DNA of 64,000 bases from Candidatus Binatia bacterium (GCA_029248525.1 JAQWJE010000049.1:386535-450534), one strand, 5' to 3'. Shown: positions 47,576-63,732, numbered from the stretch's first letter. Made by a program: numbers and translations. The notes: generated by a model not told the origin, from the sequence alone.

Positions 47576-48415
47576 GTGACTTCGAAGGCCCCGGTTGGCG
47601 AGGATTCCGTTCTGGCGGCTTGCGTGCAGATGCGCGTGGGATCGGACAAGGAGAGAAACCTGCGCACGGCATTTGACCTGGTGCGTAAAGCCGCTGATCA
47701 AGGCGTGCGTCTCGTCGTCCTGCCCGAGCTCTTCTCCTGGAGAGGCGCAACGGCACAGATGGCTGCCGCTGCCGAGTCTCTCGAGGGTCGCACCGTCGAG
47801 TTGCTCAGCGAGGTGGCTGCCGAAATGCGGGTGACCCTGGTCGCGGGCTCGATTCTGGAAGCTGCCGGGACGGCCGACGCTCTTCCCTTCAATACCATGG
47901 TGGTTCTTGGTCCCGATGGCGCGCGGTTGGGGGTCTACCGAAAGATGCATCTCTTCGATCTTGAAGTGCCCGGGGGGCCGGTTGAAAAAGAATCAGCAAG
48001 GTTCCAGGCGGGTCACCAACCCGTTTGTGTTTCGACGCCGGTGGGCAAGATCGGTCTCTCGATCTGCTATGATCTGCGATTTCCGGAACTCTACCGAGAG
48101 CTGGTGCGCGAGGGCGCGGAAATTCTCGTCACCCCTGCGGCCTTTACAGCGCATACGGGCCCGGCACATTGGGAGGTCCTTCTTCGCGCCCGTGCGATTG
48201 AAAATCAATGCTGGATGTTGGCTGCGGCTCAAGTCGGTCCGGTGACTTCCGGAACAGAGGTTTGGGGGCATTCCGCGCTGATCGACCCCTGGGGATCGAT
48301 TCTGGACCTTCGCGCCGAGGGTGAAGGGTTGGCCATGGCGGTTCTGGACCGGTCGTTGGGTCGGGCGGTTCGCCAGCAACTTCCGTGTCTGCAGCACCGT
48401 CGGATTTCGCTATGA
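47576..48415 (+). CDS. Carbon-nitrogen hydrolase (nitrilase-superfamily) protein
   Basis: E-K-C triad contexts VVLPELF, RKMHLF, GLSICYD. 279 aa. Stop overlaps moeA start (ATGA). Confidence 0.75.
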   Translation: MTSKAPVGEDSVLAACVQMRVGSDKERNLRTAFDLVRKAADQGVRLVVLPELFSWRGATAQMAAAAESLEGRTVELLSEVAAEMRVTLVAGSILEAAGTADALPFNTMVVLGPDGARLGVYRKMHLFDLEVPGGPVEKESARFQAGHQPVCVSTPVGKIGLSICYDLRFPELYRELVREGAEILVTPAAFTAHTGPAHWEVLLRARAIENQCWMLAAAQVGPVTSGTEVWGHSALIDPWGSILDLRAEGEGLAMAVLDRSLGRAVRQQLPCLQHRRISL

Positions 48416-49689
48416 GAAACAACGAGAAAATCAAACCTTTTTTTCGGGTGGTCCCCCCGGCGGAGGCGCGGGAGGCGATCGGTCGGATCAACTCGCTCGG
48501 TTCCGAGTTTGTTCCGGTAGAATCTGCGAGTGGCCGCGTTCTGGCCGCGGCCCTGCTGGTTCCCGGCGACCTGCCGACATTCGATCGCGCCCATATGGAT
48601 GGTTATGCGGTGCGGGCCCGGGACACTTTTGGTGCGTCGGACTCCCTGCCTGCGTATTTGAAGCTTTCGGGTGTGGTCGAGATGGGTCAGGCACCCAAAG
48701 AACCATTGCCGCGCGGTTGCGCGATGAGGATTGCTACCGGGGGCATGCTCCCGGAAGGCGCCGATTCTGTGGTCATGATCGAGTACACGGAAGAAGTGGC
48801 GGGGGGGCAGGTCGAGGTCAGTCGGAGCGTGTCGCCCTGGGAGCATGTGATCCGTATCGGTGAGGATATCGCAGCCGGCGCAGAGATTTTGCCGGCGGGG
48901 AGGCGTCTTCGCCCCCATGATCTGGGCGCATTGACCGGGGTGGGCATCCTCGAGGTTTCGGTGGTTCGACGCCCCCGATTGGCCTTGATCGGCACTGGCG
49001 ACGAAATCGTGGATCCTCGAACCGAGCCAGCACCGGGCCAGGTCCGGAATATCAATCAGATCTCCCTGCGCGCGATGGCCGAGGCGGCCGGGGCAGAGGT
49101 CCTGGACTTCGGGATCTGCAAGGACGACCCGGAGGCGTTCGCGAGCGTTCTGGCGCGTGCTCTGGCGAGTGCGGATACGGTATTTGTTTCGGGCGGCAGC
49201 TCGGTGGGCGTCAAGGATATGACTCTCGATGTCATTGCCGGAGTCCCGGAGACGGAACTTCTTTTCCATGGTATCTCGGTCGCCCCGGGGAAGCCGACCA
49301 TTCTGGCGATGACCGGAAACGGATCGGAACGAAAGGCGATTGTCGGTTTGCCCGGCCATCCTGTGAGTGCGTTGGTGATTTTTGCCGTCTTCGGAGGCCC
49401 GTTGGTGCGGATCCTCTCGGGCGAGGCGCCCGCGCTCGCCTTTGCGCCGCAGAACCGTACCCGGGCGAAATTGGGGCGGAATATCGATTCGGCACCGGGT
49501 CGCGAAGATTACGTTCGCGTCCGCGTCGTGGAAGGCCCGCAAGGGATGGTGGCCGAGCCATTGCCCGGTAAATCGGCGGCCATTTTTTCTCTGGTATACG
49601 CCGACGGGTACGTTGTCGTGGATCTGCATCGCGAGGGCCTGGAAGCTGGCAGCGAAGTGGATGTGATCCTGTTCGCAGGGGGGATCTGA
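48412..49689 (+). CDS. moeA: Molybdopterin molybdotransferase MoeA
   Basis: MoeA N-domain, MoCF-binding domain with VSGGSSVG motif, C-terminal domain. 425 aa. Stop overlaps next gene start (TGATG). Confidence 0.8.
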   Translation: MRNNEKIKPFFRVVPPAEAREAIGRINSLGSEFVPVESASGRVLAAALLVPGDLPTFDRAHMDGYAVRARDTFGASDSLPAYLKLSGVVEMGQAPKEPLPRGCAMRIATGGMLPEGADSVVMIEYTEEVAGGQVEVSRSVSPWEHVIRIGEDIAAGAEILPAGRRLRPHDLGALTGVGILEVSVVRRPRLALIGTGDEIVDPRTEPAPGQVRNINQISLRAMAEAAGAEVLDFGICKDDPEAFASVLARALASADTVFVSGGSSVGVKDMTLDVIAGVPETELLFHGISVAPGKPTILAMTGNGSERKAIVGLPGHPVSALVIFAVFGGPLVRILSGEAPALAFAPQNRTRAKLGRNIDSAPGREDYVRVRVVEGPQGMVAEPLPGKSAAIFSLVYADGYVVVDLHREGLEAGSEVDVILFAGGI

Positions 49690-51785
49690 TGTCGAGAAAG
49701 CGCTATTTGAACAAAAAGCCACTGCAGGAGGCTCGGGCCGATATGTTGGCCAGCGCGAGCCCTCTATCCACGCACGAGGTGGTTGGGGTCGAGGGGTCTC
49801 TGGGCCGGATAACCGCGGATGCCGTATATGCCGCGCAATCGGTGCCGCATTATCACGGCGCTGCCATGGACGGCATTGCGATTCGCGCGGAAGATAGTTT
49901 CGGCGCAAGCGAAGGGCGAGCGGTTACCTTTGAACGAGGCGACCCGGAATCTGTCGATCATCCTTTCTCGTACGTCGACACGGGCAACGCCCTGCCGACC
50001 TGGGCCAATGCAGTCGTCATGATCGAGAGAGTGTTCTCCGGAGAGGCCCCGGCGGATGGCCGTCCGATGTTGCCAACCACCGAGACCGCCGTGGGCGTCG
50101 ATGATGGTTGTTGCGGGCCCGACGAGGAACCGAACCACCAGCATCCGGAGACCACAGGTTCGGAGCCGGTGAGCGGTACGGATTGGGAACAGATTCATGT
50201 GCGGACGTCGAGCACTCCCTGGCAGCATGTCCGCCTGGTGGGGGAGGATGTGGTGGCGAGCGAACCGCTGCTTCCTCGGGGACATCGAATTCGACCGTTT
50301 GATGTAGCTGCCTTGCTCGCCGCAGGTCGCCAGGAAGTTGCGGTGCGCCCGCGCCCACGCGTTGCGATCTTGCCGACGGGAACCGAGCTGATCCAGCCTG
50401 GCGATAGTCTCGAACCAGGTCGCGTTGTCGAGTTCAATTCCCGGATGATCGCAGCCTTTGTCGATGAATGGGGGGGAGATCCGGTCAGGCTGCCGCCGGT
50501 GGTCGATGATCCGGAAAAATTGCGGCAGCGATTACTTGCAGCCCTCGAAGAAGCCGATGTGGTTTGCGTCATCGCGGGTTCGTCAGCAGGTGAGCACGAT
50601 TTTACGGCGTCCACACTCGCCGGCATGGGCTCTCTGCTGGCACACGGGGTCGATGTGATGCCTGGAAAGCCTGCCATTGTCGCGAGTCTCGATCCGCCGG
50701 CAGGCCGTCCGCAAATGGGGACGCGGATTGCTCTGGGGATGCCTGGCTATCCAGTTTCTTCGGCGATCATTTGTCGAGAGCTGTTGGAGCCCTTGTTGGC
50801 GCATCTCCTCGGCACAGCAATCGCGGATCGGGTGACGCTTGCGGCGATCGCACCTCGTAAATTGCCCTCGCGTCTCGGACAGGAGGAGTTCATTCGAGTG
50901 ACGCTCGGCCGGGTGGGTGGGCGCTTGCTGGTCAGCCCTCTGCCGCGGGGTGCTGGCGCGATTACCACCATGGTCAAGGCGGACGGTTTTTTGCGCGTAT
51001 CCCCTCTGGTCGAGGGGATCAATGCGGGGGAAGAGGTCGAGATCGAATTGTTACGCCCTCGCGCGGAGGTTGAGGGGACCGTTCTGGTCACGGGCAGCCA
51101 TGACCCGATGCTGGGTGTTCTGGAGAATGTCTTCAAAAAGAATTTCCCCGCCGGAAAGTTGGCGACCAGCTCGGTCGGCAGCCTCGCGGGATTGCTCGCT
51201 CTGGGGCGCGGGGAAGCTCATATGGCGGCGACACATCTCCTCGACCCGGAGACCGGAGTTTACAATCTGCCCGATATCGAAAGACTGATTCCCGAGGTGC
51301 CGGTGCGGATCCTTACCCTCGCCGTGCGGGAGCAGGGCTTGCTGGTGCCCAGAGGCAATCCGCGAGAGTTGTCCGGCATTGCGGATCTGGCAACGACGGA
51401 CGTCCGTTTCGTGAATCGCCAGAGGGGTGCTGGTACGCGTGTTCTACTCGATTTTCATTTGGATCGCGCCGGCATCGATCCGGATGAAATCGACGGCTAC
51501 GACCACGAAGTCTTTACGCATACTGCGGCTGCGGTGGCTGTTTCCAGTGGCCTTGTGGATGTCGGATTAGGAGTCCGCTCAGCTGCTGTCGCTTTGGGCC
51601 TGGACTTCATTCCGGTCGACCAGGAGGATTATGATCTGGTCTTGCGAGAGGACTTCGCGGCATCGCCGGTGGGCGAGGCTCTCTGCGAAGTGTTGCGGAG
51701 CGAAGATCTTCGTCGCGAGATCGGCGCGGTACCCGGTTATCAGACCTCCAGTACGGGGACCGAGAAGAAACTGACCGCACTGTAG
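49689..51785 (+). CDS. MoeA-like protein fused to C-terminal periplasmic-binding-like (molybdate-binding, COG1910-like) domain
   Basis: N-terminal ~400 aa MoeA-like (IAGSSAGEHD motif). C-terminal ~250 aa resembles PBP-type molybdate/tungstate-binding domain. 698 aa. Confidence 0.65.
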   Translation: MSRKRYLNKKPLQEARADMLASASPLSTHEVVGVEGSLGRITADAVYAAQSVPHYHGAAMDGIAIRAEDSFGASEGRAVTFERGDPESVDHPFSYVDTGNALPTWANAVVMIERVFSGEAPADGRPMLPTTETAVGVDDGCCGPDEEPNHQHPETTGSEPVSGTDWEQIHVRTSSTPWQHVRLVGEDVVASEPLLPRGHRIRPFDVAALLAAGRQEVAVRPRPRVAILPTGTELIQPGDSLEPGRVVEFNSRMIAAFVDEWGGDPVRLPPVVDDPEKLRQRLLAALEEADVVCVIAGSSAGEHDFTASTLAGMGSLLAHGVDVMPGKPAIVASLDPPAGRPQMGTRIALGMPGYPVSSAIICRELLEPLLAHLLGTAIADRVTLAAIAPRKLPSRLGQEEFIRVTLGRVGGRLLVSPLPRGAGAITTMVKADGFLRVSPLVEGINAGEEVEIELLRPRAEVEGTVLVTGSHDPMLGVLENVFKKNFPAGKLATSSVGSLAGLLALGRGEAHMAATHLLDPETGVYNLPDIERLIPEVPVRILTLAVREQGLLVPRGNPRELSGIADLATTDVRFVNRQRGAGTRVLLDFHLDRAGIDPDEIDGYDHEVFTHTAAAVAVSSGLVDVGLGVRSAAVALGLDFIPVDQEDYDLVLREDFAASPVGEALCEVLRSEDLRREIGAVPGYQTSSTGTEKKLTAL

Positions 51786-51847: not shown

Positions 51848-54841
51848 CTACTTCAGGCACTGCAGCTTGAGACGGTCTCCGTCCCGCTTCTTGGAACCCG
51901 CTACGGAGACTTTGGATGCGATCACCAGTTTTGATCCGCGTGGGACATCCACCAGCATCGCCTTCGTGCAGCTTTCTTCGCTGGTGTTCAGCAGCGTGCC
52001 GTCGTTGAGTCCCTCGAGCAAGCTGGCTCTCGCGGCCAGATCGATCGCCTTTCGGGAACGTGCGGCCGGACGTTTGAGATCGATCTCGCTGACCGCTTGT
52101 GCGGGGCAGCTGATGCGCTCATCGGCACCACCGAAGCAGCCCCAGAGCCGGAACTGGCAACCCGGCGCGGCAAGATCAAAGTCGCAGGTTGCATCGCCCT
52201 GAGCGCAGATAGCGATAGGTCTGGGGAGCCCATTCCGCGCGATGGGGACCCCACCGGGTCCGGTTTCCACGACCCATTCGGCAGCGCAGTCAGTTTTGCT
52301 CGAGCCACCGCCGGGGATTCTCAGGTCGGTGGGTGCGATCTCGCAAGTGAGGTTACAGCGACTGCTCTCGGTGCCGTTCAGGTCGCCGTCATCGCATTGC
52401 TCCCCGCACTCGAGGGTACCGTTGCCGCAAACCTCGACGTTGCAGGTATTGGAACAACCATCGCAGGAGTCGAGATTACCATCATCGCAACGTTCGCCAA
52501 TCTCGAACGCGCCGTTGCCGCATACAGCATCATTTCGCAGACAGGCGAGATTGATCTTGTTGCCGACCACCGAGCGGCCGCCGGCATCCCGGGCACCTAC
52601 ACTCAGCGGTTTGGCCGCCAGGGAGCGACCGCCAACCGGGACTACGAACTCGAACGAATTCGTGCAGAGGCCGTCCTCGGGCAGATTGGGTCCATTCTGC
52701 AAAGTGGTCGTTCCGGATTTCACGGTCCCACCCAGACCGGTGAGTGCTGACGCGACCACAGCGGCATTGCTCAGGTCGACGGGATCCCGGCCGAAGCCGA
52801 CTCGCGGCTTACGCAACTTGGCAAAGACAATGGGCTCTGCGTCGCAGAGCGGTTTCTCGGGATTATTGACACCGAGGCAGGCACTGACCTCCCAGGCACA
52901 GGAATTGTTGATCACGCCATCCTGATCGCAAATGGGATCCCCGTCGGTACACGACTGTTCGTTATCGGGGTTGCCGTTGCGATCCAGTGCCGGGTCCGCT
53001 GTGACGAGGTCCCACTGGACCAGGCAGCCGTTGCGGGCCTTGGTCCCGGGGATGCGAATCCCGTCTACGCCGGTTGGCTGACACGTGTCTTCGCAGCCAT
53101 CATCATTGTCGAGATTCCCATCGTCGCAGGATTCGTTGCATTCAAGAATACCATCGCCGCAGAGATCGTCGATTCGACTACAGTCGGAACTGCAACCGTC
53201 ACAGTTCCGGATGTTGCCATCGTCGCAAACCTCGCCCTCATCGGTCGTGCCGTCGCCACACGCACTCGCGCATTCCGGGAGCACGACCGGCGGCTGCGCC
53301 CCATCGAGAGAGGGGTCGGAGACGGGTGTAATTATCGGATCCGAGCCGTTGTCGGCGCTGATATTGCCGGTGATGGTCGGTTCCACGGTGTCGTAGATCA
53401 AAACATTTGCATACGAGGCCAGCATGGTGCCGGCAATCGTGATGGCTCCCCGGGCCCGGATCTCGTTGACGCCAAGTCCTTGGTAGACAAAGCCGGCCCG
53501 GGTATCGATCTCGGCGCCTGCCGCCACATTGACGGAACAGCCGGAGAGAAGGACCATACCGCCGAGGCCATCGCGCCCAGTGCCTTCGGCATCGAGCTCT
53601 CCAAGGATCTCTGTGCCTCCACCCGAGAAAATTTCCACAAATCCGCCACCTCCCGGGGAGGTCAGATCGGCATCCCGGATGATGCTGTTTCCGGTCGCTG
53701 CGATGGAGATGCCACCGCCACTTCCGTAGCTGCCGCCAGCGCGCAGGGAGAGTGAACTGCCGGGATGCATGGTGACACTGCCGCTGGTAGTGATATCGAC
53801 TTCACCGCCAAAGCACTGGGTGCCGCCCTGGAATCGTAGCTCGGAGCGTAGATCGATATCTCCGCCCGATTCAATCGTGAGTGGTGAGCCGTCCCCGCAA
53901 TTTTCGTCGGCACCAGCCCCGCCCTTGCCGTTCATGATCCCGGAAATATCGACAAAGCCTGCGGGAGCGGAAAAGTCGATGGAACCGGCTTCGCCGTCAG
54001 GACCGCCGCCGGAGGCCTCGATCTCTCCGTTGAAAATGATGTTCCCGCCCGTGCTGCTGAAGAAGATCGGTCCGCCGCCGTATGCGCCGCCTTGTGTGGT
54101 GATCTCGCTACTCACAACGAGGTCGCCGCCCGCATATGCGGAGAAGTCTCCGCCTGCGGAGTCCGCGCCAGAGGCATTGAGAATCATCTCGCCGGATAGT
54201 GTGATCGGCCCGGAGGCATCGATTGAAATCACCCCTCCCTGCGCATCGGCGCCGGTGGCGGAGGAGCGCAGCTCGCCGGCTGCGGTCACGGCGCTGCCGG
54301 GAGTTTCCAGAGCCTTGATGTAGATCGAGCCCGCGTAATTGTCACGGACGTCAATGATACTCCCGACCTCAAGGGAGATGTCTCCCGCGAGGGCCTCCAG
54401 GTCGACACGAGATTGCGCCCCATTGCCGTCAATTTCAGCACCGCTGCGCATCGTAATCGTTCCGGCTTTGAAGGTGATGCGCCGGAGGACCGGATCAGGC
54501 AGAGACTCGATCGTGACTTTGGCCGAAGCCGCGAAGACCAGGTCGGTCTCTGCGCCAAATTCCAGAACGGAGCCGGCATCGATGGTGACGGCGCTGCTGA
54601 TTGTACAGGGGTTCCCCGTGCACAGTTCGCTGGCTTCCGTGGCCAAGCCGGTTCGTGGCAGCAGGACAAATAGAGAAAGAAGGCAAATTTGAGCAAATGA
54701 TTTCAAGGGAACCCCTCCCAGGGATAAATTTTGGGGATTTTGTGTGCGATCCAACCGGATCTGGTTTGCCTGATTCAAGTTTCTGTCCGGGGCCACAAGC
54801 CAAGCCAACCCTGAAATTATCATGGGTTCCAAAAAAAGCAC
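51848..54841 (-). CDS. Large secreted protein: glycine-rich beta-helix-like N-terminal region plus Myxococcus-type cysteine-rich repeats
   Basis: 997 aa. N-terminal half is G/S/D-rich with periodic repeats (beta-helix-like). C-terminal half carries repeated CDDGN...CDGCS...C modules matching Myxococcus cysteine-rich repeat. N-terminal start and signal peptide position uncertain. Confidence 0.6.
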   Translation of the reverse strand: MLFLEPMIISGLAWLVAPDRNLNQANQIRLDRTQNPQNLSLGGVPLKSFAQICLLSLFVLLPRTGLATEASELCTGNPCTISSAVTIDAGSVLEFGAETDLVFAASAKVTIESLPDPVLRRITFKAGTITMRSGAEIDGNGAQSRVDLEALAGDISLEVGSIIDVRDNYAGSIYIKALETPGSAVTAAGELRSSATGADAQGGVISIDASGPITLSGEMILNASGADSAGGDFSAYAGGDLVVSSEITTQGGAYGGGPIFFSSTGGNIIFNGEIEASGGGPDGEAGSIDFSAPAGFVDISGIMNGKGGAGADENCGDGSPLTIESGGDIDLRSELRFQGGTQCFGGEVDITTSGSVTMHPGSSLSLRAGGSYGSGGGISIAATGNSIIRDADLTSPGGGGFVEIFSGGGTEILGELDAEGTGRDGLGGMVLLSGCSVNVAAGAEIDTRAGFVYQGLGVNEIRARGAITIAGTMLASYANVLIYDTVEPTITGNISADNGSDPIITPVSDPSLDGAQPPVVLPECASACGDGTTDEGEVCDDGNIRNCDGCSSDCSRIDDLCGDGILECNESCDDGNLDNDDGCEDTCQPTGVDGIRIPGTKARNGCLVQWDLVTADPALDRNGNPDNEQSCTDGDPICDQDGVINNSCAWEVSACLGVNNPEKPLCDAEPIVFAKLRKPRVGFGRDPVDLSNAAVVASALTGLGGTVKSGTTTLQNGPNLPEDGLCTNSFEFVVPVGGRSLAAKPLSVGARDAGGRSVVGNKINLACLRNDAVCGNGAFEIGERCDDGNLDSCDGCSNTCNVEVCGNGTLECGEQCDDGDLNGTESSRCNLTCEIAPTDLRIPGGGSSKTDCAAEWVVETGPGGVPIARNGLPRPIAICAQGDATCDFDLAAPGCQFRLWGCFGGADERISCPAQAVSEIDLKRPAARSRKAIDLAARASLLEGLNDGTLLNTSEESCTKAMLVDVPRGSKLVIASKVSVAGSKKRDGDRLKLQCLK

Positions 54842-54880: not shown

Positions 54881-55459
54881 TCAGGTATGCATCCGGGGCA
54901 AGTGCTTCGGCATCCGGGAAAGCACCTCAGCCTCATGCTCTGCCAAAGTGCGGAGTCGTTCGGAAACGTCGTGATCTCCGGCGATTTCCTCAGCCAGAGT
55001 CACATAAGATCTGTGATGTCGGGCCTCGCTGGCCAGGAGGCCACGATAAAGATCTCGCAACTCCGGGTCGTCGAGATGATCGGCGAGCAATTTCATGCGC
55101 TCGCAGCTTCGTGCCTCGATCAAGGCGAGACAGAGCAGGGTGTCGAGGAGCCGATCCGGCTCGCGGGTGCGGACGGCGGCCAGTAATTCCCCGGCGTAAG
55201 GGCTCGCTTTTTGCCTCTGAAAAGTCATGCCGAGACGAGATAGATGGCCCAGAACTGTCTCGAAATGAGCGAGTTCTTCGCGCGCCAGACGTGCGAGAGG
55301 AATTTGCAGCGGTTCCAGATGAGGGTAGCGAAAGAGCAGCCTGATGGCGGTCGAGGCCGCCTTCTTTTCGCAATGCGCGTGGTCGACCAGAACCTCTTCC
55401 ATTTGGAGAGAGGCCCGGTCGACCCAGGCGCGATCGGTTGCGGATGCCAGATTCAGCAT
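54881..55459 (-). CDS. miaE: tRNA-(ms2io6A37)-hydroxylase
   Basis: LVDHAHCEKKAASTAIRLLFRYP is the conserved MiaE diiron signature. Start at Met 55459. 192 aa. Confidence 0.7.
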   Translation of the reverse strand: MLNLASATDRAWVDRASLQMEEVLVDHAHCEKKAASTAIRLLFRYPHLEPLQIPLARLAREELAHFETVLGHLSRLGMTFQRQKASPYAGELLAAVRTREPDRLLDTLLCLALIEARSCERMKLLADHLDDPELRDLYRGLLASEARHHRSYVTLAEEIAGDHDVSERLRTLAEHEAEVLSRMPKHLPRMHT

Positions 55460-55488: not shown

Positions 55489-56202
55489 TTACTTGGTGGG
55501 ATCGGGAGTCACCACCTTCTCCGGCGCGACAATTTCGATCAGCTCGACATCGAAGATCAGCGTCGCTCCGGGCTGAATGCTGGGCGGCGCGCCACGGTCG
55601 CCATAAGCAATATCCGAGGGACAGACCAGCGTCGCTTTGCCCCCAGCCTTCATCTTCTGCACACCCTCGGTCCAGCAAGGAATCACGCCGTTGAGAGGGA
55701 AGGTTGCCGGAGTCCCTCTCTCGACCGAGCTGTCAAATACGGTTCCGTCGAGAAGTTTCCCGGTGTAGTGAACCTTGACGCGGTCGGTGGCGGCAGGCTG
55801 AGCTCCCGTCCCGGCCTCGACGCTGGTGAAGATCAACCCGGAATCTGTTGTCTCGGCGCCGGGTGCTTTTGCGGCTTTGGCAAGATACGCCTTCCCGGCG
55901 TCCTTCTCCTTTGCGGCACGCGCGGTGCTGCGCTCCTGCGAAATTGTTCGCAACTGGTCACGGAACGCATTGGGATCCACGGCGGGCTCCTTCCCGCTGG
56001 CGCCATCGGCTAGGCCCTCCTGCACGAATTTGAGTTCTGCGGGGGTCAAATCGAAAGCTTTCAAATTGCCACTCATCAAAAAGCCCAAAGCGTAAAACGT
56101 CTTCTGATTGTCGTCAGCCGGAGCGGCTTCTTCCGCGGATGAAAACGTGGGGCTGACGATCAGGGCGAATGCCATGGCTGTGGTGAGGATAAACTTCATC
56201 AT
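55489..56202 (-). CDS. FKBP-type peptidyl-prolyl cis-trans isomerase (FkpA/FklB-like, periplasmic)
   Basis: Signal peptide. C-terminal FKBP domain (VHYTGKLLDGTVFDSS...ATLIFDVELIEI). 237 aa. Confidence 0.8.
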   Translation of the reverse strand: MMKFILTTAMAFALIVSPTFSSAEEAAPADDNQKTFYALGFLMSGNLKAFDLTPAELKFVQEGLADGASGKEPAVDPNAFRDQLRTISQERSTARAAKEKDAGKAYLAKAAKAPGAETTDSGLIFTSVEAGTGAQPAATDRVKVHYTGKLLDGTVFDSSVERGTPATFPLNGVIPCWTEGVQKMKAGGKATLVCPSDIAYGDRGAPPSIQPGATLIFDVELIEIVAPEKVVTPDPTK

Positions 56203-56369: not shown

Positions 56370-56412
56370 TGCCGCAAAAGGAAAAGGGCCGGAGCGGTCA
56401 TCGCTCCGGCCC
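56370..56412 (-). terminator. Rho-independent terminator downstream of GT75-like gene
   Basis: GGGCCGGAGCG-gtcat-CGCTCCGGCCC (11-bp stem). On the minus-strand transcript it is followed by UUUUCCUUUUGC. ~70 nt downstream of the stop at 56482. Confidence 0.55.
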
Positions 56413-56481: not shown

Positions 56482-57579
56482 CTAGCGATCGAAAAGTTCG
56501 GACCAGCGATGCAGTCTCTGGAAGGTTTCCAGAAAATATTCACGGTACATCGGCGGGCAGAGAAGATCATCAGCCACCTTGGTGAAATTGTTCACCAGGA
56601 AGCCGAATACGTCCTGATACATGGCCGCATAGGTTCCGGGCTGCGCCGCGTCCACTCCCGCATCGATCATGCCGTAGAAGTAGGGTGACATCAGGTGACC
56701 GTAATGCTCGCCGTGAACTTCCTTGAGAAGATCGCCTTCTTTGAGGTGAGTACCGACGGGCTCGCCAACTGCAATCAGGTCCTGGCCGCCGCGCTTATGC
56801 ACCAGCGCTTCGATCACATAACCGGCCCAGATATCGTCAAATCTCCAGATCGGATAGCCCTTGGCAATCTCTCGATCCATGGGCATCTGGTAGGCTGCCG
56901 GCAACATGTCGCGATGGAAAGCGAAGTTCATTGCACAGAAAGAGAACTTGGTGGGAACCTTTGGCGTTCCGACTGTGAGGAGCGGCTCGACAAGCTTCAC
57001 ATCGTTTCGCAGCGAGCGATAATCCTCGAACAGATATTTATCCAGTCCGTCATAGTCGAGAACGTTTTTCCAAAGCCCCATGATGCAGGTCATGCGTCCG
57101 GAGACTTCAGTGAATTTCTCTTCGAGGGGATGACGGAGCCAATATGGGAAGCCGCGCGGATAGATGGTGCGCCCATCGTCGCCGAACTCATTGAGGAAGG
57201 AGATGGTGTTGTACCAGCCATCGACCTCCACGTTGGGCCAGGTGCCTTCTGTGCCGACACAGGAGTACGCGTCCATAAAATTGGGTGGGCAAAACACATC
57301 ATCGTCGAGAGTAATCACGACGTCATGGTCGGTGTGTTTGTAGACGTAATAGAACGCGAAGTTGCGGCACGCCGCAGTCTTGTGGGGGATTAGATCATAA
57401 TCCTTACCCATGACTTCCCGCTGGTCGTCGTAGGTGAAGACCGTCATTTTGTCGCGAGATTTCTTGATATTGCCGTCCGAGTCATCGACGACAAAAATAT
57501 CGACATCCTCGGGAATCGCGGCGATGCGGTCGGCCTCGATCGTGCGGATCGAGGGAATAATGACGACGGGTTTTTTCAT
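56482..57579 (-). CDS. GT75-like / reversibly-glycosylated-polypeptide (UDP-arabinopyranose mutase)-like protein
   Basis: VVIIPSIRT, ITLDDDVFCPP (DxD) and YPRGFPYWLR align with RGP/GT75 signature regions (IVIPTIR, TIDDDCF, RGYPFSLR). Start at ATG 57579 with GGAGG RBS 8 nt upstream. Confidence 0.5.
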   Translation of the reverse strand: MKKPVVIIPSIRTIEADRIAAIPEDVDIFVVDDSDGNIKKSRDKMTVFTYDDQREVMGKDYDLIPHKTAACRNFAFYYVYKHTDHDVVITLDDDVFCPPNFMDAYSCVGTEGTWPNVEVDGWYNTISFLNEFGDDGRTIYPRGFPYWLRHPLEEKFTEVSGRMTCIMGLWKNVLDYDGLDKYLFEDYRSLRNDVKLVEPLLTVGTPKVPTKFSFCAMNFAFHRDMLPAAYQMPMDREIAKGYPIWRFDDIWAGYVIEALVHKRGGQDLIAVGEPVGTHLKEGDLLKEVHGEHYGHLMSPYFYGMIDAGVDAAQPGTYAAMYQDVFGFLVNNFTKVADDLLCPPMYREYFLETFQRLHRWSELFDR

Positions 57580-57615
57580 TTTACGGAACCTCCGGGGAAC
57601 ATACTTGAACAGTGA

Positions 57616-57634
57616 TACCTGCGACGCAGGTTTA
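57616..57634 (-). promoter_or_regulatory. Perfect palindrome upstream of GT75-like gene
   Basis: ACCTGCGaCGCAGGT located ~40 nt upstream of ATG 57579 in a 276-nt intergenic gap. Confidence 0.25.
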
Positions 57635-57855
57635 AGAGCCCACAAGATTCCCTATCGGCAGGGCTGCGGGAAAGTCTATTTTTTCTATTGCCGACGATCT
57701 GGGCAAAATTCTCTCGAATTTGGCCGGTTTTTCGTCGGGGCTATCCTTCAAGCAATTGTTTTCACAACGGTTTTGCAATCGCTGTCGCAAACAAAGATCG
57801 AGCGGCCGCAAGCAGATTTTTTTTTCACAGCTGTCTCCATAAGCTGAAATTTTCT

Positions 57856-59442
57856 CTAATCGGCTCGTCCCGTCCTCCCTTGCTCGATGGGGGGCGAGCG
57901 CAAATTCCGGATAATCTCCTCGATCTCCGCTCCGGAGAGTCCGGCCGCAGATGGCTGGTCGAGAATTGATAATCTTGGTTCGCGCCAGGTCTCGGCGCGC
58001 TCAATTTGCGCAAAGATTCTTCCAAAAGCTTCCGGAAGAATCGCCTCTCCGCCGAGGACGGCGACCGTCCAGTCGTCAGATGTTGCCGCAGCGAAGCCGA
58101 AATGGCTGCTGGGTTTTTGCGCGGTTCGTGCGGGAAGCTCCGCGGCGCTGGTCCCCTTTTTCCGGAAGGTTTCGGTGAATTTCTGCACTTTCGTTCGTGG
58201 CATCAGGAAGTCGGCAAGAAGGTGAAATGGCGTCGGGCGCCCGGCGGCGCGCAGACTCGCACCGGTTTTCGGGTTCCGCCAAAACGCGCGCAAGGAAGCG
58301 AGGGTCACGCTCTGTGGCTGTTTACTGGCAATGGCGATCCATCGCGAGGCTGGCTGGCCGGCCCAGATCGTCACGTCGAGGAACTCCGTTGTCAGCTCCG
58401 ACATAACCAGAGCCAATTCCTCGACGGGTAGGGTCCCCGGATCAATTTTCACGGCGTAGAGCCCGTCGGGAGCCAGAGCTTCAGCGATCGAGTCGAGAAA
58501 CGATTGCGAGAGACACGCGGCAAAGGCTTGCGAGGTGACCATCGGCGGTTGGAGGAGAATGACGTCGAAAGGGCCTCCCGAGACGGGAGAGCATGCCGCT
58601 GCGGTCTCTGTCCGGGGCGTGATTGGCGCCGCCGACTTGTCGGTAAACCAACTCGTCAAATGGGCGGGTTCGCCGAGTCGGTCGCGAACGAAGATTTCGA
58701 GATCCGAATGCGTGCCCGCGGCGGCGATTGGTTGGCCGCTGCCTCGGCCGAGAAAGAGCATTCGCTTTGGCTGGCCTTGGAGGATCAATGGCAGATGGGC
58801 CAAAAATCGATCCTCTTGCGCCAGAGCTTCCGCGTATATCGCGCGGCCGTCGGGTCCGCGCAGGAGCCGTCCCCGATTGGCATCATCGGTGACCATCGCT
58901 ATCCCGGGCGCCTCGTCCGCGAGCGCGAGAAGCGTACCGAATCGATCTTGCAGGCTCCCGCTGAGCAGCGAGCGGGGCCATAAGGCGCTGAGCCCGACGC
59001 AAAGCAGGAGGAAAATCAGCGTGCGCTTGCGTGGGGGAAGGGTTGTCTCGATGGCCAACGCAATGGCGGCTGTCGCCGGAAAGATTTGGAGAGTCCCAAA
59101 TTGCCAGGCAAAGGCTGCTTGCAGCCAAGGCATCGCGGCCAGAGCGCCGACAAGAAAACCTGCGAAAACGGGCCCGCTGGATTCGGCCTCTCGTCTGGTC
59201 CGGGAAAGGGTCGCCCCCAGAAGGGGCGCCACCGGCAGCAGGAGGAGGGTATGAACGCCGAAGATCCAGAGCAGGGTGCTGGGCCAGCTATCGAGTTTCG
59301 GGAGATAGGGCGCGGCTCGGGGGAGCACCCATCCAAGAAAGAGCCAGAGGAGAGGCAGGCTGAGAGTTGCTGCGATCGCGCCGAATAGCAGTCGTTTGGA
59401 TGAGCCCGTCAGGCGCCGCCAGTCAAGCAGGGATCCGATCAC
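57856..59442 (-). CDS. Membrane protein with spermidine-synthase-like (aminopropyltransferase/PABS-fold) C-terminal domain
   Basis: N-terminal ~200 aa with multiple TM helices. Later LFLGRGSG and FDVILLQPP resemble SpeE GGGDG and DVIIVD motifs. 528 aa. Confidence 0.4.
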   Translation of the reverse strand: MIGSLLDWRRLTGSSKRLLFGAIAATLSLPLLWLFLGWVLPRAAPYLPKLDSWPSTLLWIFGVHTLLLLPVAPLLGATLSRTRREAESSGPVFAGFLVGALAAMPWLQAAFAWQFGTLQIFPATAAIALAIETTLPPRKRTLIFLLLCVGLSALWPRSLLSGSLQDRFGTLLALADEAPGIAMVTDDANRGRLLRGPDGRAIYAEALAQEDRFLAHLPLILQGQPKRMLFLGRGSGQPIAAAGTHSDLEIFVRDRLGEPAHLTSWFTDKSAAPITPRTETAAACSPVSGGPFDVILLQPPMVTSQAFAACLSQSFLDSIAEALAPDGLYAVKIDPGTLPVEELALVMSELTTEFLDVTIWAGQPASRWIAIASKQPQSVTLASLRAFWRNPKTGASLRAAGRPTPFHLLADFLMPRTKVQKFTETFRKKGTSAAELPARTAQKPSSHFGFAAATSDDWTVAVLGGEAILPEAFGRIFAQIERAETWREPRLSILDQPSAAGLSGAEIEEIIRNLRSPPIEQGRTGRAD

Positions 59443-59628
59443 GAAGAGGGCCGCGAAGCTGGCGGCGAACGAGATTTCCGACCAGAGCGTATTTTGCGAC
59501 AGGAGAGTCGCCAGCCGGGCCAGGAGAAAAAACAGACATGCGGTAAGCAGCCCGATCGAAAAGGGGCGTACCCCGGCCCTCAGGCGAAACGCTCGGGCGG
59601 AGCCTCTGCTTTCCTCCGAGCCCAGCGC

Positions 59629-60753
59629 TCAGGCTCCGGTGCCGGCAGCAAAGAGATTTTCTCGCTTTCGCTGAGCGGTCAGTGGCTGTCCGAGATTTTT
59701 CTCCAGTCGGGCGGCTGCAGCAGGTGCCTGGCGACGCATTTTTCCGAAAACTTCCGCGGGAATCGCCACAGCAACGCACGGCATATCGGCAATGACGGTT
59801 TCCGAATGGCGGTACTTTTCAAACGATCCATTCTGTCCAAAATGATCGCCGGGCTGAACGGGAAATTTTCGGTCCCCCTGGATCGATGTTGCCTCACCTG
59901 CGACGAGGAGGAACGTTGATTTGGCGGGCTCTCCGCGTCTGGCGACCCGGTCGCCGGTGCAGATCCGAAAGATTGTGGACTGGTCGAGAATCTGGTCTAT
60001 CTCGCGATCTCCCATGCCACGAAAAATAGCGCAACTGTTCGCGACCCCGGAGCCCAGCCGCTGTTCCACCCGAGGTCTCATGCCGCCGGGTCCGAGCTCT
60101 GTCCCGGTTAGCGCCGGTCCCGCTCCCGGGTACATTTCGTGGAACCACGCGATGACCTCATTGTCGTCGAGGTAGTTTGCAGCAGCTCGAGCGAGCGGCG
60201 TCCGACGCCGCAAAAGTTCCTGTCGATCGCCGAGCAGCATGAGGAGTGGCAACTTGTAACCGTAAGCCGGATCATCAAACCCTCTCTCGTAATTGCGGAA
60301 GCCCAAATGCTGATAAAAGGGGAGCTGGTGAGGGCTGCAGTCCCCGAAATTCAGCCGGATTTCGCGTTGGCGCATATAGTCGTACACGACCTTCATCAAA
60401 GGATAGATCAATCGTCCATTGCGATTCCGGGGATCGAGCATGAATCGGCTCGTCGTGCAGAGGGCGTCCATGCCGAAGCCGGCCAGAGCCGGGTGCATAT
60501 GGAGGCGCGATAGAATCTTCTGCGGTTCCGGAAGGTCGGCAAGGCAGGTCACCCGCAGAGAGCCGATCGCTTCCCCATTTTTCCAGGCACCGAAGGAGAG
60601 GCTGTTCTCCTCGATCACATCCCGGATAGATCGGGACTCGTGATCGGCCTCGGGGGTCGGGATTTGCAACTCCTCGACGTAGACGCGGTAGCGGAGTTCG
60701 CAGATTTCCGAAATCTCTCGGGGCGTCTTCGCTGGACCTATGACCACGCCCAT
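59629..60753 (-). CDS. FeeM-like N-acyl amino acid synthase (GNAT fold) fused to cyclic-nucleotide-binding domain
   Basis: N-terminal ~230 aa resembles FeeM/autoinducer-synthase-like N-acyltransferases (LRYRVYVEEL...). C-terminal ~120 aa has cNMP-binding beta-roll signature (FLLVAGEA...GDHFG...A). Confidence 0.5.
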   Translation of the reverse strand: MGVVIGPAKTPREISEICELRYRVYVEELQIPTPEADHESRSIRDVIEENSLSFGAWKNGEAIGSLRVTCLADLPEPQKILSRLHMHPALAGFGMDALCTTSRFMLDPRNRNGRLIYPLMKVVYDYMRQREIRLNFGDCSPHQLPFYQHLGFRNYERGFDDPAYGYKLPLLMLLGDRQELLRRRTPLARAAANYLDDNEVIAWFHEMYPGAGPALTGTELGPGGMRPRVEQRLGSGVANSCAIFRGMGDREIDQILDQSTIFRICTGDRVARRGEPAKSTFLLVAGEATSIQGDRKFPVQPGDHFGQNGSFEKYRHSETVIADMPCVAVAIPAEVFGKMRRQAPAAAARLEKNLGQPLTAQRKRENLFAAGTGA

Positions 60754-61520
60754 CCGGCCTGCTCGTTTCCCACTTGTCGGAACATTGTCGTGTACAGATA
60801 CGAGACTACGCGAGCCGCTTCGCAGACGTCTCTCCGATCTTCAGGAGTCTGGATATGACCCTCGATGGCTCGGCTTATATCCTCGAAATGGCTCGCATCA
60901 GCCGCTCCATGCCCCGCTACAAATTGTACGGGAGCCGATACGCCCCCTCGGTTTTCGCTCAGCTTCGCGCCCACCTCGGAGCCGATATCCGCCCCGACAG
61001 CCTCGAGGATATACATCCAACCCATGATAGCGGCGGGGTTTCCGGACGTCGCCAAATCGTGGACGTAGCCAACCAGTGCCGCACAGGCGAGGGTGGGGCG
61101 CGCCCGGACGACGGTTTCCCCGGAGACGCCGAGTTTCTCGAGGTCTGCGAGAGCCCATTTTTCATGCCCCTGCTCTTCAAGGGAATGCCGCAGCAAATAC
61201 GTTGCAAGGCCTTCGTTCTCCGTACAGCAGCGGGCTGCCGCAGCCGCCATGATAACGGGGCTGAAACGGGCATAATGGTATACGTTGGTCAGGTAGTTGG
61301 CGTAGTCCTCATTGCTCAGGCTGCCGGCCAAAGCCTCGGAAACGATCCGACATCCCTTGAGGTTTGCCATGGTCGACAGGCGTATTTCGCCGAGCGCCTC
61401 CATCGGCTTTTGCTCATCTTTGCTCTGCTGGTCAGCTTGCTTGACGCGAGCAATTCCCAAACCACCCATCATCCACCCCACATACGCCCGACCCACATCG
61501 TTCGGCGCGTTCTTCGTCAT
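60738..61520 (-). CDS. Iron-containing redox enzyme family protein (heme-oxygenase-like fold, PqqC/CADD/TenA-like)
   Basis: 260 aa helical protein with EEQGHE and HGAADASHFED carboxylate/His motifs like HO-like diiron enzymes. Overlaps downstream gene start by 16 nt. Confidence 0.45.
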   Translation of the reverse strand: MTKNAPNDVGRAYVGWMMGGLGIARVKQADQQSKDEQKPMEALGEIRLSTMANLKGCRIVSEALAGSLSNEDYANYLTNVYHYARFSPVIMAAAAARCCTENEGLATYLLRHSLEEQGHEKWALADLEKLGVSGETVVRARPTLACAALVGYVHDLATSGNPAAIMGWMYILEAVGADIGSEVGAKLSENRGGVSAPVQFVAGHGAADASHFEDISRAIEGHIQTPEDRRDVCEAARVVSYLYTTMFRQVGNEQAGWAWS

Positions 61521-61647
61521 GATCACCCTGATTCTCAGGGTGTGCAAGACAACATCTTACCGTGTTGATCATAGCAAATGCAGCATGACGAGTAAATTTG
61601 TCGAGATATATGACAATCGGGAGGCTGGTTGGTGGTGCGAAAACGGT

Positions 61648-63732
61648 TCAGGAGGTCCAGCTGGCCTCGAAACCCGCATACCAGTTCAGGCGCGCGGCCG
61701 GTTCATAGAAGCGTCCTCCGCGGGCGTTGATCCGCAGGGTTCCATCATAGGTTGCACCATTGAGATTCCGGACGCCTGCGAACGGCTGGACTTGCCAATG
61801 TTTGCCGATCATCCCTGTCCAGGCCATGCGGAGGCCGAGCGTGACGTATGCCGGGCTTTTGGCCAGATTTGCGTCATCCACGGGGATGGCTCCCACCCCC
61901 TGGACCTCGGCGGCCAGATACAAGCCGGAATCGCCGCGCCAGGAAAGTTCCCCGAACGCCTGCCAGGGCGGGATTCCGGGCTCGGCGTTCCCGTCGAATT
62001 GTCCATTATCCGTCGTATACGAGATATATTTTGCATCGAGGGCGGCGGCGGCCAGAGTCCATCCAAAGCCCATCGGCAGCTTGCCGCTTCCTTCGAGTTC
62101 GACTCCCCGGCGTTGCGATCGACCGGCATTTCGAAACGCCACTCTTCCCGACAGGGTTTCATAGGGAATCAGTTCGTCCTGCAGGTCGATCAGGAAAAAA
62201 GCGAGACCCAGAGTCAGGGATTCGTGTTCATATCGGGAGCCTACCTCCCAGCTTTGGGCGGTTTGGGGTTTGATTTCGTCGTTGAAGCCCGGCCTATTGG
62301 GGTTCACCAATTCTGTCGTGGTTGGGACCTGAAAAGCGGTGCTGAACGAGGCGAAGACGGAGAGATCGCTGTCCGGCGTCCAGAGGATTCCGGCCGAGGG
62401 GCTCCAACGGTCCATGGTTCGATTGCCCGAGTCTCCGCTGTCGGCAGGGAAGCGGACGTCGACCGCATAGAAAAAGGCGTCGTAGCGAATGCCGCCTGTG
62501 AGCTCGACCTCGGGAAGAATTTCAAAGTCCTCTCGAAGGAAAACGCCGATGCCGGTAACCTCCTCGACTTGATGGAGTCCGAGCGCACCCTGATTCCCCT
62601 CCTCGTTGGCCCAGCGCCGGCGATCGTCGTTCTGGTGTTGCACCTCGAGACCGGTGGTGATGCGTTGTGTCCACCCCCATAGCGGACCGTTCCATTGGTA
62701 CTGGAGCCCACCGGACGGGGAGATGCGATCGAATCCGACGACCCCGTCACCGAATTGGGGAAGGATGGGCAGGCGAGCAAAAAAGCTGCGGTAGAGCAGG
62801 CTGATATTGCCATCGACGCTATGTGGGCCGTCCTGATACGAACCGACCAGACCCAGCCGGACTTGCTGGACCTCTTCGCCTGCCCGCAACAGAACATTTC
62901 GCTCTCGAGCGCTGCGCCGATCCTCCTCGACCTCCTCGATCGTCAATCCACCGGGGTCCTGCGCCTGCGGCGCATCCACCGCCTGAAGGAGCAACGTCAG
63001 ATCAATCGTGTCGGATAAATCCCATTTCGCCTTGCCGCTCAGGTTGGCACTTCTGGTCCGCGCATGATCGCGATAGCCGTCCTGCTGCATCCAGGTCGCC
63101 CCGAGATAACCGCCGCCGGACTCCCAACGAGTATCAGCCTGAGCAGATGCTCGCAGCAGCCCGAAGGATCCGCCGAGAACCCGGGCCGTGACCCCGGGAT
63201 TTTCCGGAGGTTCGCGCGTGAAAATTTGTACGACCCCTCCTGCCGCATTCCCGTAAAGGGAAGCGGATGCGCCGCGCAGGACTTCGACCCGGTCGGTCAT
63301 CGCGAGATCGAGGTCGTCGATCTGGGTTTGGCCGTCGGCGAGAGTAGCGGGCAGTCCGTCAACAAGAACTTTGATCTCTCGAATTCCGAATGCCGCTCGC
63401 GTTCCAAAGCCACGAATCTGGATTCGTGCATCCTGCGCAAAGTTTCCGCTTTCCTGCACGAGAAGGCCGGGCACGCGGGCCAGGGATTCCCCGAGGGAGA
63501 CGCCCGGGCGAGCCAGAGTCAGTGCGTCGGGCCCGACGATACTGATACTCGCGGCGTTCTTCTGGAGTGGCCGCGGTGATCGAGTGCCCGTCACGACCAA
63601 GGATTCAATGGAGGCCGGAGGGGTCTCGCCGGTGCTTGTTGGCGCTTCCTCTTGGGCAACAGTTGCCGCATATGCCATGCTCGGGCCTGCAAGTAAAAAC
63701 AGAATTCCCGTAAGCCATCGTTGCCAGTTCAT
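61648..63732 (-). CDS. TonB-dependent receptor
   Basis: Signal peptide MNWQRWLTGILFLLAGPSMAYA. Plug motif (ESLVVTGTRSPRPLQ), 22-strand barrel-like repeats. 694 aa. Confidence 0.75.
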   Translation of the reverse strand: MNWQRWLTGILFLLAGPSMAYAATVAQEEAPTSTGETPPASIESLVVTGTRSPRPLQKNAASISIVGPDALTLARPGVSLGESLARVPGLLVQESGNFAQDARIQIRGFGTRAAFGIREIKVLVDGLPATLADGQTQIDDLDLAMTDRVEVLRGASASLYGNAAGGVVQIFTREPPENPGVTARVLGGSFGLLRASAQADTRWESGGGYLGATWMQQDGYRDHARTRSANLSGKAKWDLSDTIDLTLLLQAVDAPQAQDPGGLTIEEVEEDRRSARERNVLLRAGEEVQQVRLGLVGSYQDGPHSVDGNISLLYRSFFARLPILPQFGDGVVGFDRISPSGGLQYQWNGPLWGWTQRITTGLEVQHQNDDRRRWANEEGNQGALGLHQVEEVTGIGVFLREDFEILPEVELTGGIRYDAFFYAVDVRFPADSGDSGNRTMDRWSPSAGILWTPDSDLSVFASFSTAFQVPTTTELVNPNRPGFNDEIKPQTAQSWEVGSRYEHESLTLGLAFFLIDLQDELIPYETLSGRVAFRNAGRSQRRGVELEGSGKLPMGFGWTLAAAALDAKYISYTTDNGQFDGNAEPGIPPWQAFGELSWRGDSGLYLAAEVQGVGAIPVDDANLAKSPAYVTLGLRMAWTGMIGKHWQVQPFAGVRNLNGATYDGTLRINARGGRFYEPAARLNWYAGFEASWTS

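Follow-up and report, generated by a model that had tools for sequence, protein, structure and literature searches.

A widespread gene pair for a predicted heme-oxygenase-like diiron oxidase and a FeeM-type synthase with a cyclic-nucleotide-binding domain, described from a Candidatus Binatia locus

We analysed a 64,000-nt stretch of DNA from a Candidatus Binatia bacterium (GCA_029248525.1, JAQWJE010000049.1:386535-450534; hereafter the window, meaning the whole stretch; compared loci carry numbers prefixed L and members of the protein families numbers prefixed P). The window has a G+C content of ~60% and holds, between positions 56,482 and 63,732, five co-directional genes on the minus strand, predicted to encode, in order of transcription, a TonB-dependent receptor (TBDR), a heme-oxygenase-like diiron oxidase (HDO), a FeeM-type N-acyl amino acid synthase (NAS) fused to a cyclic-nucleotide-binding (CNB) domain (FeeM-CNB), a SpeE-like membrane protein and a GT75 (RGP-like) protein. 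An initial annotation of this DNA had grouped the five genes as one biosynthetic or envelope-modification pathway, perhaps for an acylated amine or polyamine lipid regulated by cyclic nucleotides. We recovered all five open reading frames (ORFs) where that annotation had placed them, and direct hidden Markov model searches (Pfam matches counted when above the gathering score, NCBIfam matches at E <= 0.01) upheld its domain calls for four of the five proteins, the PABS fold of the membrane protein being reached by remote homology only. However, only the HDO and FeeM-CNB genes turned out to be conserved together outside one Binatia clade, and it is this pair, a cassette of two genes and ~1.9 kb, that forms the subject of this report. 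The same locus, its FeeM-CNB protein identical, recurs on contig JAQWME010000039.1 of the Candidatus Binatia metagenome-assembled genome (MAG) GCA_029246955.1, and several metagenome assemblies contain it as well.

The HDO gene (60738-61520, minus strand like the other four; 260 aa from the gene-caller ATG at 61520, in an ORF open to 61547) runs into the FeeM-CNB gene (59629-60753; 374 aa): the HDO stop codon (TAG, 60740-60738) and the FeeM-CNB start codon (ATG, 60753) lie in a shared stretch of exactly 16 nt, the overlap that had been reported. The TBDR gene (61648-63732; 694 aa, with a signal peptide, plug and barrel) lies upstream of the pair; the membrane protein gene (57856-59442 as annotated, 528 aa from a GTG at 59442; 57856-59583 with conserved coding) and the GT75 gene (56482-57579; 365 aa from the gene-caller ATG at 57579, in an ORF open to 57645) follow downstream. 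The spacing had been described as small gaps or overlaps, which suits the 16-nt overlap but not the remaining junctions: 127 nt separate the TBDR and HDO genes, with a promoter-like site inside, 186 nt separate the FeeM-CNB gene from the annotated start of the membrane protein, and 276 nt, including a ~105-nt conserved non-coding block, separate the latter from the GT75 gene. No known RNA or riboswitch was found in the intergenic regions (no Rfam match at E <= 0.1).

The first protein of the pair matched PF14518 (Haem_oxygenas_2) at 62.9 bits against a cutoff of 28.9, and also PF03070 (TENA/THI-4/PqqC) above its gathering score, with the core domain beginning at about Met40 (61403). In a family alignment of 26 diverse sequences, six predicted metal ligands (E116-x2-H119, E173 and H204-x3-D208-x2-H211) were invariant and fell on the E..H, E and HxxxDxxH columns of CADD. 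A set of three His and three carboxylates defines the HDOs, as in CADD and UndA (PMC13108848). The predicted ligands of the window protein match this signature, in keeping with the earlier suggestion of a possible diiron enzyme. The profile of the family reached 3DDE (E 5e-33), MboA (1e-8) and CADD/4-aminobenzoate synthase (5e-4), so that the nearest solved structure is 3DDE and the nearest characterised enzyme MboA. From the homology to 3DDE, an uncharacterised, TENA/THI-4-annotated protein of solved heme-oxygenase-like fold that shows the same ExxH, E and HxxxDxxH columns, we infer a seven-helix heme-oxygenase fold. MboA, the mangotoxin acetylenase (PDB 9YPI), is an HDO desaturase/acetylenase that turns an amino-acid side chain into an alkyne (PMC13185094); it is likewise an amino-acid-directed oxidase in a small biosynthetic operon, but the similarity is low, and MboA works on a peptide together with the redox partner MboB and ATP-grasp ligases, neither of which occurs here, where the partner is an N-acyltransferase. 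About a dozen of the >10,000 predicted HDOs have been characterised, and nearly all of these use free amino acids, peptides or fatty acids (PMC13108848).

The second protein combines two domains. PF21926 (FeeM) matched at 48 bits against a cutoff of 27 (1.5e-12) over residues ~1-190 (window ~60184-60753), and PF00027 (cNMP_binding) at 37.6 bits against 27.5 (2.1e-9), with the C-terminal CNB domain at residues ~235-355 (window ~59689-60051). Among the families named in the initial annotation, PF00027 was thus recovered, as was PF03214 on the GT75 protein; the acyltransferase was caught by PF21926, PF13444 staying under its cutoff (19.8 against 22.4 bits), and PF01564 gave no direct match to the membrane protein. 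In an AlphaFold2 model (pLDDT 90), Foldseek placed the N-terminal domain closest to FeeM (2G0B, TM-target 0.77) and next to the N-acyl homoserine lactone (AHL) synthases TofI, BjaI and LasI (0.62-0.71), and the C-terminal domain among the CNB folds of HCN, PKA-R and GlxR. The model thus assigns the NAS domain a LuxI/FeeM GNAT-like fold. The resemblance to LuxI-type AHL synthases is structural only, PF00765 (Autoind_synth) giving no match for the window protein; nor did TIGR03694 (PEP-CTERM/exosortase-associated) match it at E <= 0.01, and the annotated flanks carry no exosortase gene. The protein shares PF21926 and the fold with FeeM and with NAS enzymes from environmental DNA such as NasY and NasP, but structurally aligned residues are only ~16% identical. 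FeeM itself has a single domain and belongs to a 13-gene fee cluster, while the synthase here carries the CNB fusion and has the HDO as its partner. The family of such fusions is small, with 30 clusters recovered from 5.8 billion proteins by a word-indexed search, and NCBIfam holds no specific model for either protein of the pair.

The neighbourhood was compared from both sides of the pair. In a first test, with FeeM-CNB relatives at 33-41% identity on long contigs, an HDO gene lay immediately upstream in 4/4 and the other three genes in 0/4. We then surveyed one genome per GTDB species from the NAS side, which gave 80 loci, and searched all of them with the window proteins by tblastn. An HDO orthologue (37-70% identical) was found directly upstream in every locus whose FeeM-CNB protein was at least 33% identical to that of the window (L007-L045, ~35 non-redundant loci), and these loci are labelled as Binatia, Myxococcales, Alpha-, Beta- and Gammaproteobacteria, Planctomycetia, Methylomirabilia, Nitrospirales, Acidobacteria/Holophagae and Actinomycetes. 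At intact loci, the junction is mostly an overlap of 4, 10 or 16 nt or a gap of <60 nt; one locus has a 202-nt gap, and in four the genes are frameshifted. From the HDO side, a metagenome scan with the single motif [FM]GW[ML]Y[VI]LE returned 54 loci, 44 of which have at least 300 nt downstream; a FeeM-CNB gene lay directly downstream in 40 of these 44, a figure valid solely for the HDO subfamily that this one motif catches.

Altogether, the HDO and FeeM-CNB genes are the only two of the five that travel together across ~75 non-redundant MAG and metagenome loci. The acyltransferase and the heme-oxygenase-like enzyme had been proposed to belong together, and in that respect the initial annotation was right; its neighbourhood test succeeds widely for this pair and breaks down for the other three genes beyond one Binatia clade. 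We take the pair to be one cassette, with translational coupling predicted from the gene arrangement. When flanking ORFs were clustered, small ones of at least 50 aa included (such as would encode an acyl carrier protein, ACP), only an occasional SDR gene and the clade-specific TBDR recurred beyond the MMPL transporter described below. The cassette is widespread and appears undescribed, as had been surmised for the cluster: full-text literature searches, with most subscription journals outside their coverage, returned no paper that joins a heme-oxygenase-like protein with a synthase of N-acyl amino acids, and none that joins FeeM with cyclic nucleotide binding.

The sole other widespread neighbour is an MMPL/HAE3 RND transporter gene, which lies directly downstream of the pair in ~16 of the 44 loci with at least 2.4 kb of downstream sequence. 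In the Binatia lineage of L010, its start abuts the NAS stop codon (MMPL at L010 11122-13458). Equivalent positions are occupied by an MMPL gene in L018, L019, L026, L028, L031, L103, L106 and L110-L117. Two distinct HAE3/MMPL-type transporters, of ~780 aa and ~1050 aa and only ~25% identical to each other, follow the pair depending on lineage, which points to repeated recruitment of an exporter.

The sensor domain differs between lineages. In CNB domains, a Glu (xGE) and an Arg (R[ST]A) of the phosphate-binding cassette contact the cyclic nucleotide monophosphate (cNMP). Of the 46 HDO-linked members from outside the Binatia clade, 30 have a canonical cassette (xGE...R[STA]A), as against none of the seven from within it, all of which read FGQ...H/Y-x-E; in the window protein, with FGQ...HSE, both canonical contacts are gone. 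Cyclic-nucleotide regulation, as first proposed for this locus, is therefore plausible for the family and doubtful for the window protein. There is precedent for such an architecture: in the mycobacterial protein acetyltransferase Pat, a cAMP-gated GNAT, a cNMP-binding domain allosterically controls an acyltransferase, and the Pat model NF058543 weakly matched the CNB region of the family member in L020. The domain order in Pat is reversed, however, and Pat acetylates protein lysines, whereas the protein here would be a lipid N-acyltransferase of LuxI/FeeM fold whose cassette in the window lacks the cNMP contacts.

We favour, at a probability of roughly 60%, the reading that the region is composite and that its core is a translationally coupled HDO and NAS-CNB cassette making an oxidatively tailored N-acyl amino acid. 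The comparisons above show the gene identities, the conserved metal-ligand residues, the fold of the NAS-CNB protein, the conserved pairing with its overlap and the association with MMPL; what the two enzymes act on, which of them acts first, what they make and what the sensor domain does are inferred. The NAS domain would condense an acyl-ACP or acyl-coenzyme A with an amino acid, yielding the N-acyl derivative of the latter, and the HDO, with its predicted diiron centre and O2, would tailor this product or its amino-acid precursor by desaturation, hydroxylation, N-oxygenation or oxidative C-C cleavage. The CNB domain would gate the synthase allosterically, with cAMP or cGMP as the probable ligand in most lineages; in the Binatia clade, where the ligand contacts are lost, control would probably be independent of a ligand or exerted by another one. 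In about a third of lineages the HAE3/MMPL RND transporter encoded directly downstream would export the lipid, no such gene being present in the window.

If correct, this reading points to a new class of HDO substrates, N-acyl amino acids or their precursors, and to a route to tailored lipoamino acids that runs parallel to a known one. The tyrazolone cluster of M. tuberculosis (tyzABC) and the clusters for stieleriacine, for thalassotalic acid and for kyonggic acid combine NasY/TyzA with the O2-dependent desaturase TyzC and the ThiF-like TyzB (PMC10404671, PMC12479983). As in the present cassette, a FeeM/NasY-type synthase gene is arranged like part of an operon, often with an overlap, beside the gene of an O2-dependent enzyme (here a predicted one) for tailoring N-acyl amino acids, and the lipid product is in some cases associated with MmpL-type transport. 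They differ in that TyzC belongs to the flavin nitroreductase family, whereas the oxidase here is a predicted diiron HDO, and in that the cassette has no ThiF-like gene and carries a CNB domain on its synthase; no nitroreductase or ThiF family was found among the annotated neighbours of the fetched loci or the recurrent neighbour clusters. We class the cassette as a new variant among N-acyl amino acid cassettes that include a tailoring oxidase; it stands outside the Tyz-type, PEP-CTERM-linked and LuxI families, because it lacks the features that define them. The CNB fusion would moreover tie lipid or signal synthesis directly to the state of a second messenger.

Several points weigh against this reading. 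Sequence does not reveal which amino acid and which acyl group are used, and the substrate of the HDO could be a free amino acid or a fatty acid instead of the N-acyl product. All genomes that bear the pair are uncultured MAGs, and the HDO-side count is tied to a single search motif. The gating idea is weakest at the very locus described here, because the window CNB domain lacks the canonical Glu and Arg, and the lineage of the window has no MMPL gene. Finally, the order of TBDR, pair, membrane protein and GT75 genes is kept in four Binatia lineages, which leaves room for a lineage-specific functional extension.

The alternative that survives best keeps the chemistry of the favoured reading and differs in assigning the product a signalling role instead of a membrane-lipid role: the cassette would be a second-messenger-gated synthase of a diffusible, autoinducer-like N-acyl amide, switched by cNMP and with its head group edited by the HDO. 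The structural matches to TofI, BjaI and LasI speak for it, as do the canonical cNMP cassettes of the non-Binatia members, a PF00765 match recorded for one family member (P0026), and the frequent adjacency of HDO-less FeeM-CNB relatives to PAS-histidine kinases, Ser/Thr kinases or methyl-accepting chemotaxis proteins. But the window protein itself has no PF00765 match, no LuxR-type receptor gene recurs beside the pair, and a dedicated HAE3/MMPL lipid exporter suits a bulk amphiphile better than a diffusible signal; we regard this alternative as unlikely, if worth keeping in mind. We hold with still less conviction a broader proposal in which HDO, NAS(CNB) and MMPL form a widespread second-messenger-gated maker and exporter of a new class of oxidised lipoamino acids, for which the Binatia gained a TBDR for re-uptake. 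Its products might be N-acyl-N-hydroxy, diazeniumdiolate or dehydro amino acids that serve as an amphiphilic metallophore or an interspecies signal, and they would provide the first lipid-amide substrate for the HDO superfamily.

A purely metal-directed version of the scheme seems slightly less probable again. Here the HDO would N-oxygenate an amino acid (to a hydroxamate or diazeniumdiolate), the NAS would add an acyl tail, the MMPL protein would export the resulting amphiphilic metallophore and the TBDR would re-import the metal complex. MmpL4/5 export mycobactins, and the genes are suitably placed, with the TBDR directly upstream of the pair in the Binatia clade and an MMPL gene directly downstream in L010. 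HDOs are moreover known to include N-oxygenases and chalkophore-pathway enzymes (PMC13108848). The receptor matched PF07715 (Plug) and PF00593 (TonB_dep_Rec_b-barrel) above the gathering scores, and its second-best NCBIfam match was to the siderophore receptor family TIGR01783, at 173 against a cutoff of 223.5; yet it fell below the cutoff of every receptor family and so is classed as a generic TBDR, its adjacency to the pair is confined to one clade, and no Fur-box-like site (at least 12/19 matches) was found upstream of the TBDR or HDO gene with the E. coli consensus, which may not hold for Binatia. On the enzyme side, MboA, the closest HDO of characterised function, desaturates and does not N-oxygenate its substrate, and the predicted 3-His/3-carboxylate ligand set contrasts with the 3-His/4-carboxylate set of the N-oxygenase SznF.

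Two further observations concern the receptor and the region behind it. The PqqC-like Pfam match of the neighbouring HDO raised the idea that the TBDR might be PqqU, which was rejected: although NF041535 (PqqU) was the best NCBIfam match of the receptor, it scored 332 bits against a cutoff of 1200. Between the TBDR stop and the HDO start lies a sigma-70-like promoter candidate (61568-61596, minus strand; TTTACT-17-TATGAT with a TG extension), whose TTTACTC and TTTGCTA blocks are kept in the window, L012 and L016. A promoter scan of the region returned 4 sites against 2.6 expected by chance; the candidate suggests, with weak statistical support, that the pair has its own promoter.

The pathway first proposed, in which all five genes would cooperate in envelope modification, with an acylated amine or polyamine lipid as product, to which the PABS-like membrane protein would add aminopropyl groups, which would be glycosylated through GT75 and which the TBDR would sense or import, is improbable. 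In its favour, all the genes are co-directional, and four Binatia lineages keep the order TBDR-HDO-NAS-(MMPL)-membrane protein-GT75 even though their NAS proteins are only 59-75% identical to that of the window. The genes for an FKBP-type isomerase, MiaE and a DUF4215-like protein, however, keep their order in the same lineages, and the gene order of the cluster therefore reflects general synteny by descent. The TBDR, membrane protein and GT75 genes accompany the pair only in Binatia-clade loci (L010/L011, L012/L013, L016, L017 and the metagenome loci L098-L101) and never outside that clade (~70 loci). Comparison of the neighbourhoods from the NAS (80 loci), HDO (54 loci) and GT75 sides led us to reject a five-gene operon, and we read the three additional genes as neighbours of the pair by descent within one Binatia clade. 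For annotation, this means that the co-directional block should not be propagated as a single biosynthetic cluster.

The GT75 gene fits the proposed pathway poorly in its own right. Its product matched PF03214 (RGP) at 44.5 bits against a cutoff of 23.8 (1.5e-11) and the MtdL structures at E 1e-16, and LDDD, PRGFP, RFDD and GTH are conserved in the alignment to 7YUA, which makes it a putative NDP-sugar pyranose-furanose mutase. MtdL and Hyg20 are bacterial GT75 GDP-sugar pyranose-furanose mutases, and a DDD Mn site, the nucleophilic Arg, an Arg/Asp pair and a His have been defined in MtdL (PMC9937993). The window protein has the equivalents of the DDD motif, Arg159 (PRGFP), Arg257/Asp260 (RFDD) and His287, but its sugar specificity is probably different, because Asp87, Ser228 and Gln229 of MtdL are replaced by Ala, Ala and Met. 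The gene has 124 homologue clusters, and relatives that are 69-74% identical are found not in antibiotic clusters but in polysaccharide ones, beside genes for Wzx, Bac_transf, GT4, sulfatase and sulfotransferase. In GCA_005777805.1, an 82%-identical copy (L153) and the HDO/FeeM-CNB/MMPL trio (L019) lie on separate contigs, and in the window the gene has its own conserved leader and terminator. By these comparisons, the GT75 gene is independent of the cassette, and its membership in the pathway finds no support.

Aminopropyl transfer, the other step peculiar to the proposed pathway, fares no better. The polytopic membrane protein had no Pfam or NCBIfam match (E <= 0.01), PF01564 and TIGR00417 included, and NF037959 gave 12.4 bits against a cutoff of 40. 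It has only 7 close homologue clusters, but an exhaustive profile search returned 1,280 distant relatives; of the ten top ones checked, all carry PF01564 and 9/10 score above the cutoff of the fused MFS/spermidine synthase family. With hhalign, the alignment to these fused proteins had a probability of 100% (E 1.6e-45, 542 columns). The window protein aligns over its full length to their C-terminal two-thirds (NF037959, PF01564); it is the shorter of the two, with neither their N-terminal MFS half nor their TPR tail. An AlphaFold2 model (pLDDT 54, from 7 sequences), for which Foldseek ranked spermidine synthases first (E ~1e-6), was used as corroboration only; a spermidine-synthase-like Rossmann fold is thus supported through remote homology. 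In a transitive alignment to T. thermophilus SpeE (1UIR), LGRGSGQ stands at GGGEG and DVILLQPPM at DVVIIDLTDP. The acidic loop of SpeE is therefore missing: both Asp of the aminopropyltransferase motif are replaced in the family, by Q and M, which makes aminopropyl transfer doubtful and leaves an acylated polyamine lipid unsupported.

It is very unlikely that the heme-oxygenase-like protein acts outside the NAS pathway altogether, either as a self-sacrificing cofactor synthase of CADD/PabS type or as a metal-free enzyme of TenA/PqqC type merely located next to the synthase. The PF03070 match, the reach of the family profile to CADD/4-aminobenzoate synthase and the many invariant Tyr and Trp residues of the family alignment would agree with such a role. 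The invariance of all six metal ligands, however, makes a metal-free enzyme unlikely; the HDO-CADD alignment begins after the position of the sacrificial Tyr of CADD, the CADD stretch around E142 meets no conserved Lys in the HDO family, and a common pathway is favoured by the near-obligate overlap of the HDO and NAS genes, seen in ~75 loci. An anti-phage effector of Pycsar/CBASS type, its cNMP-binding domain sensing a defence nucleotide, is effectively refuted, as the weak PADLOC matches to PycTIR effector models (E 2.5e-5 to 4e-4) span the CNB domain only (residues 253-362), no cyclase gene is adjacent among annotated flanks and recurrent neighbour clusters, and the binding cassette of the window protein is degenerate.

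Beyond the members linked to an HDO gene, there is a second and distant FeeM-CNB group (loci L046-L094, ~50 loci at 22-29% identity), mostly without an HDO; three of its loci carry a distant heme-oxygenase-like gene. A PAS-histidine kinase family recurs nearby in 16 loci, mostly upstream; in 5 loci, a gene for a B12-binding radical SAM protein is found downstream. Two of the loci come from cultured strains, including Anaerospora hongkongensis DSM 15969 (L075), and Rhodospirillaceae bacterium LM-1 (L086) is another example; loci of this group could serve as cultured entry points to the fusion.

The GT75 protein is 93-97% identical across the lineages of the clade, where neighbouring proteins are 36-86% identical. 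Together with its low G+C content (0.536), this made recent horizontal transfer a candidate explanation, which we rejected: G+C at third codon positions is normal and equal to that of the neighbours, and synonymous sites have diverged nearly as far as in those neighbours, with third synonymous positions 0.57-0.61 identical. Since amino acids are conserved while synonymous sites have diverged, the comparison indicates unusually strong purifying selection on the protein, and the low G+C content stems from its amino-acid composition. Directly 5' of the gene lies the conserved non-coding leader or promoter block (57580-57685, minus strand), ~105 nt that are nearly invariant in four Binatia lineages (equivalents at L012 ~13065-13162, L016 ~13075-13170 and L010 ~15560-15659), while the flanking genes show 46-76% nucleotide identity. 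A hairpin (CCUGCG..GCAGG) and a Shine-Dalgarno sequence (GGAGG) lie within it; Rfam returned no match, its folding z-score of -1.04 is no better than that of shuffled sequence, and its conservation does not extend to the regions upstream of GT75 genes beyond the clade. We consider it a candidate clade-specific leader, operator or promoter. Downstream of the gene, an intrinsic-terminator-like, GC-rich hairpin with a T-run behind it (~56378-56412, minus strand; GGGCCGGAGCG-AUGAC-CGCUCCGGCCC and then UUUUCCUUUU) was read directly from the sequence; a consensus scan for signals did not list it.

The start of the membrane protein may lie upstream of its annotated GTG at 59442, the only canonical start. 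A conserved N-terminal transmembrane helix is encoded before it (window 59443-59631), conserved coding reaches at least ~59570, and by tblastn the similarity can be followed to 59613. The interval between this GTG and the stop of the FeeM-CNB gene, which is in the same frame, is free of in-frame ATG, GTG and TTG codons, and the homologue P0032 starts with Met where the window has GTA (Val). The protein may therefore use a non-canonical start (CTG or ATC) or be truncated or, less likely, be made by read-through.

Further along the minus strand, directly 3' of the GT75 terminator and in the same order throughout the clade, lie genes for MiaE (a tRNA ms2io6A hydroxylase and non-heme diiron enzyme) and a periplasmic FKBP-type isomerase (54881-55459 and 55489-56202). 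They are followed by the gene of a 997-aa secreted-looking protein (51848-54841, minus strand) with Cys-rich CGDG...C(D/N)DGN repeats and faint DUF4215 matches, whose synteny with the cluster holds in every Binatia lineage that was examined. On the plus strand, two tandem genes for MoeA-like molybdopterin molybdenumtransferases occupy 48385-51785, the second with a fused PBP_like domain according to the gene-caller annotation of identical contigs.

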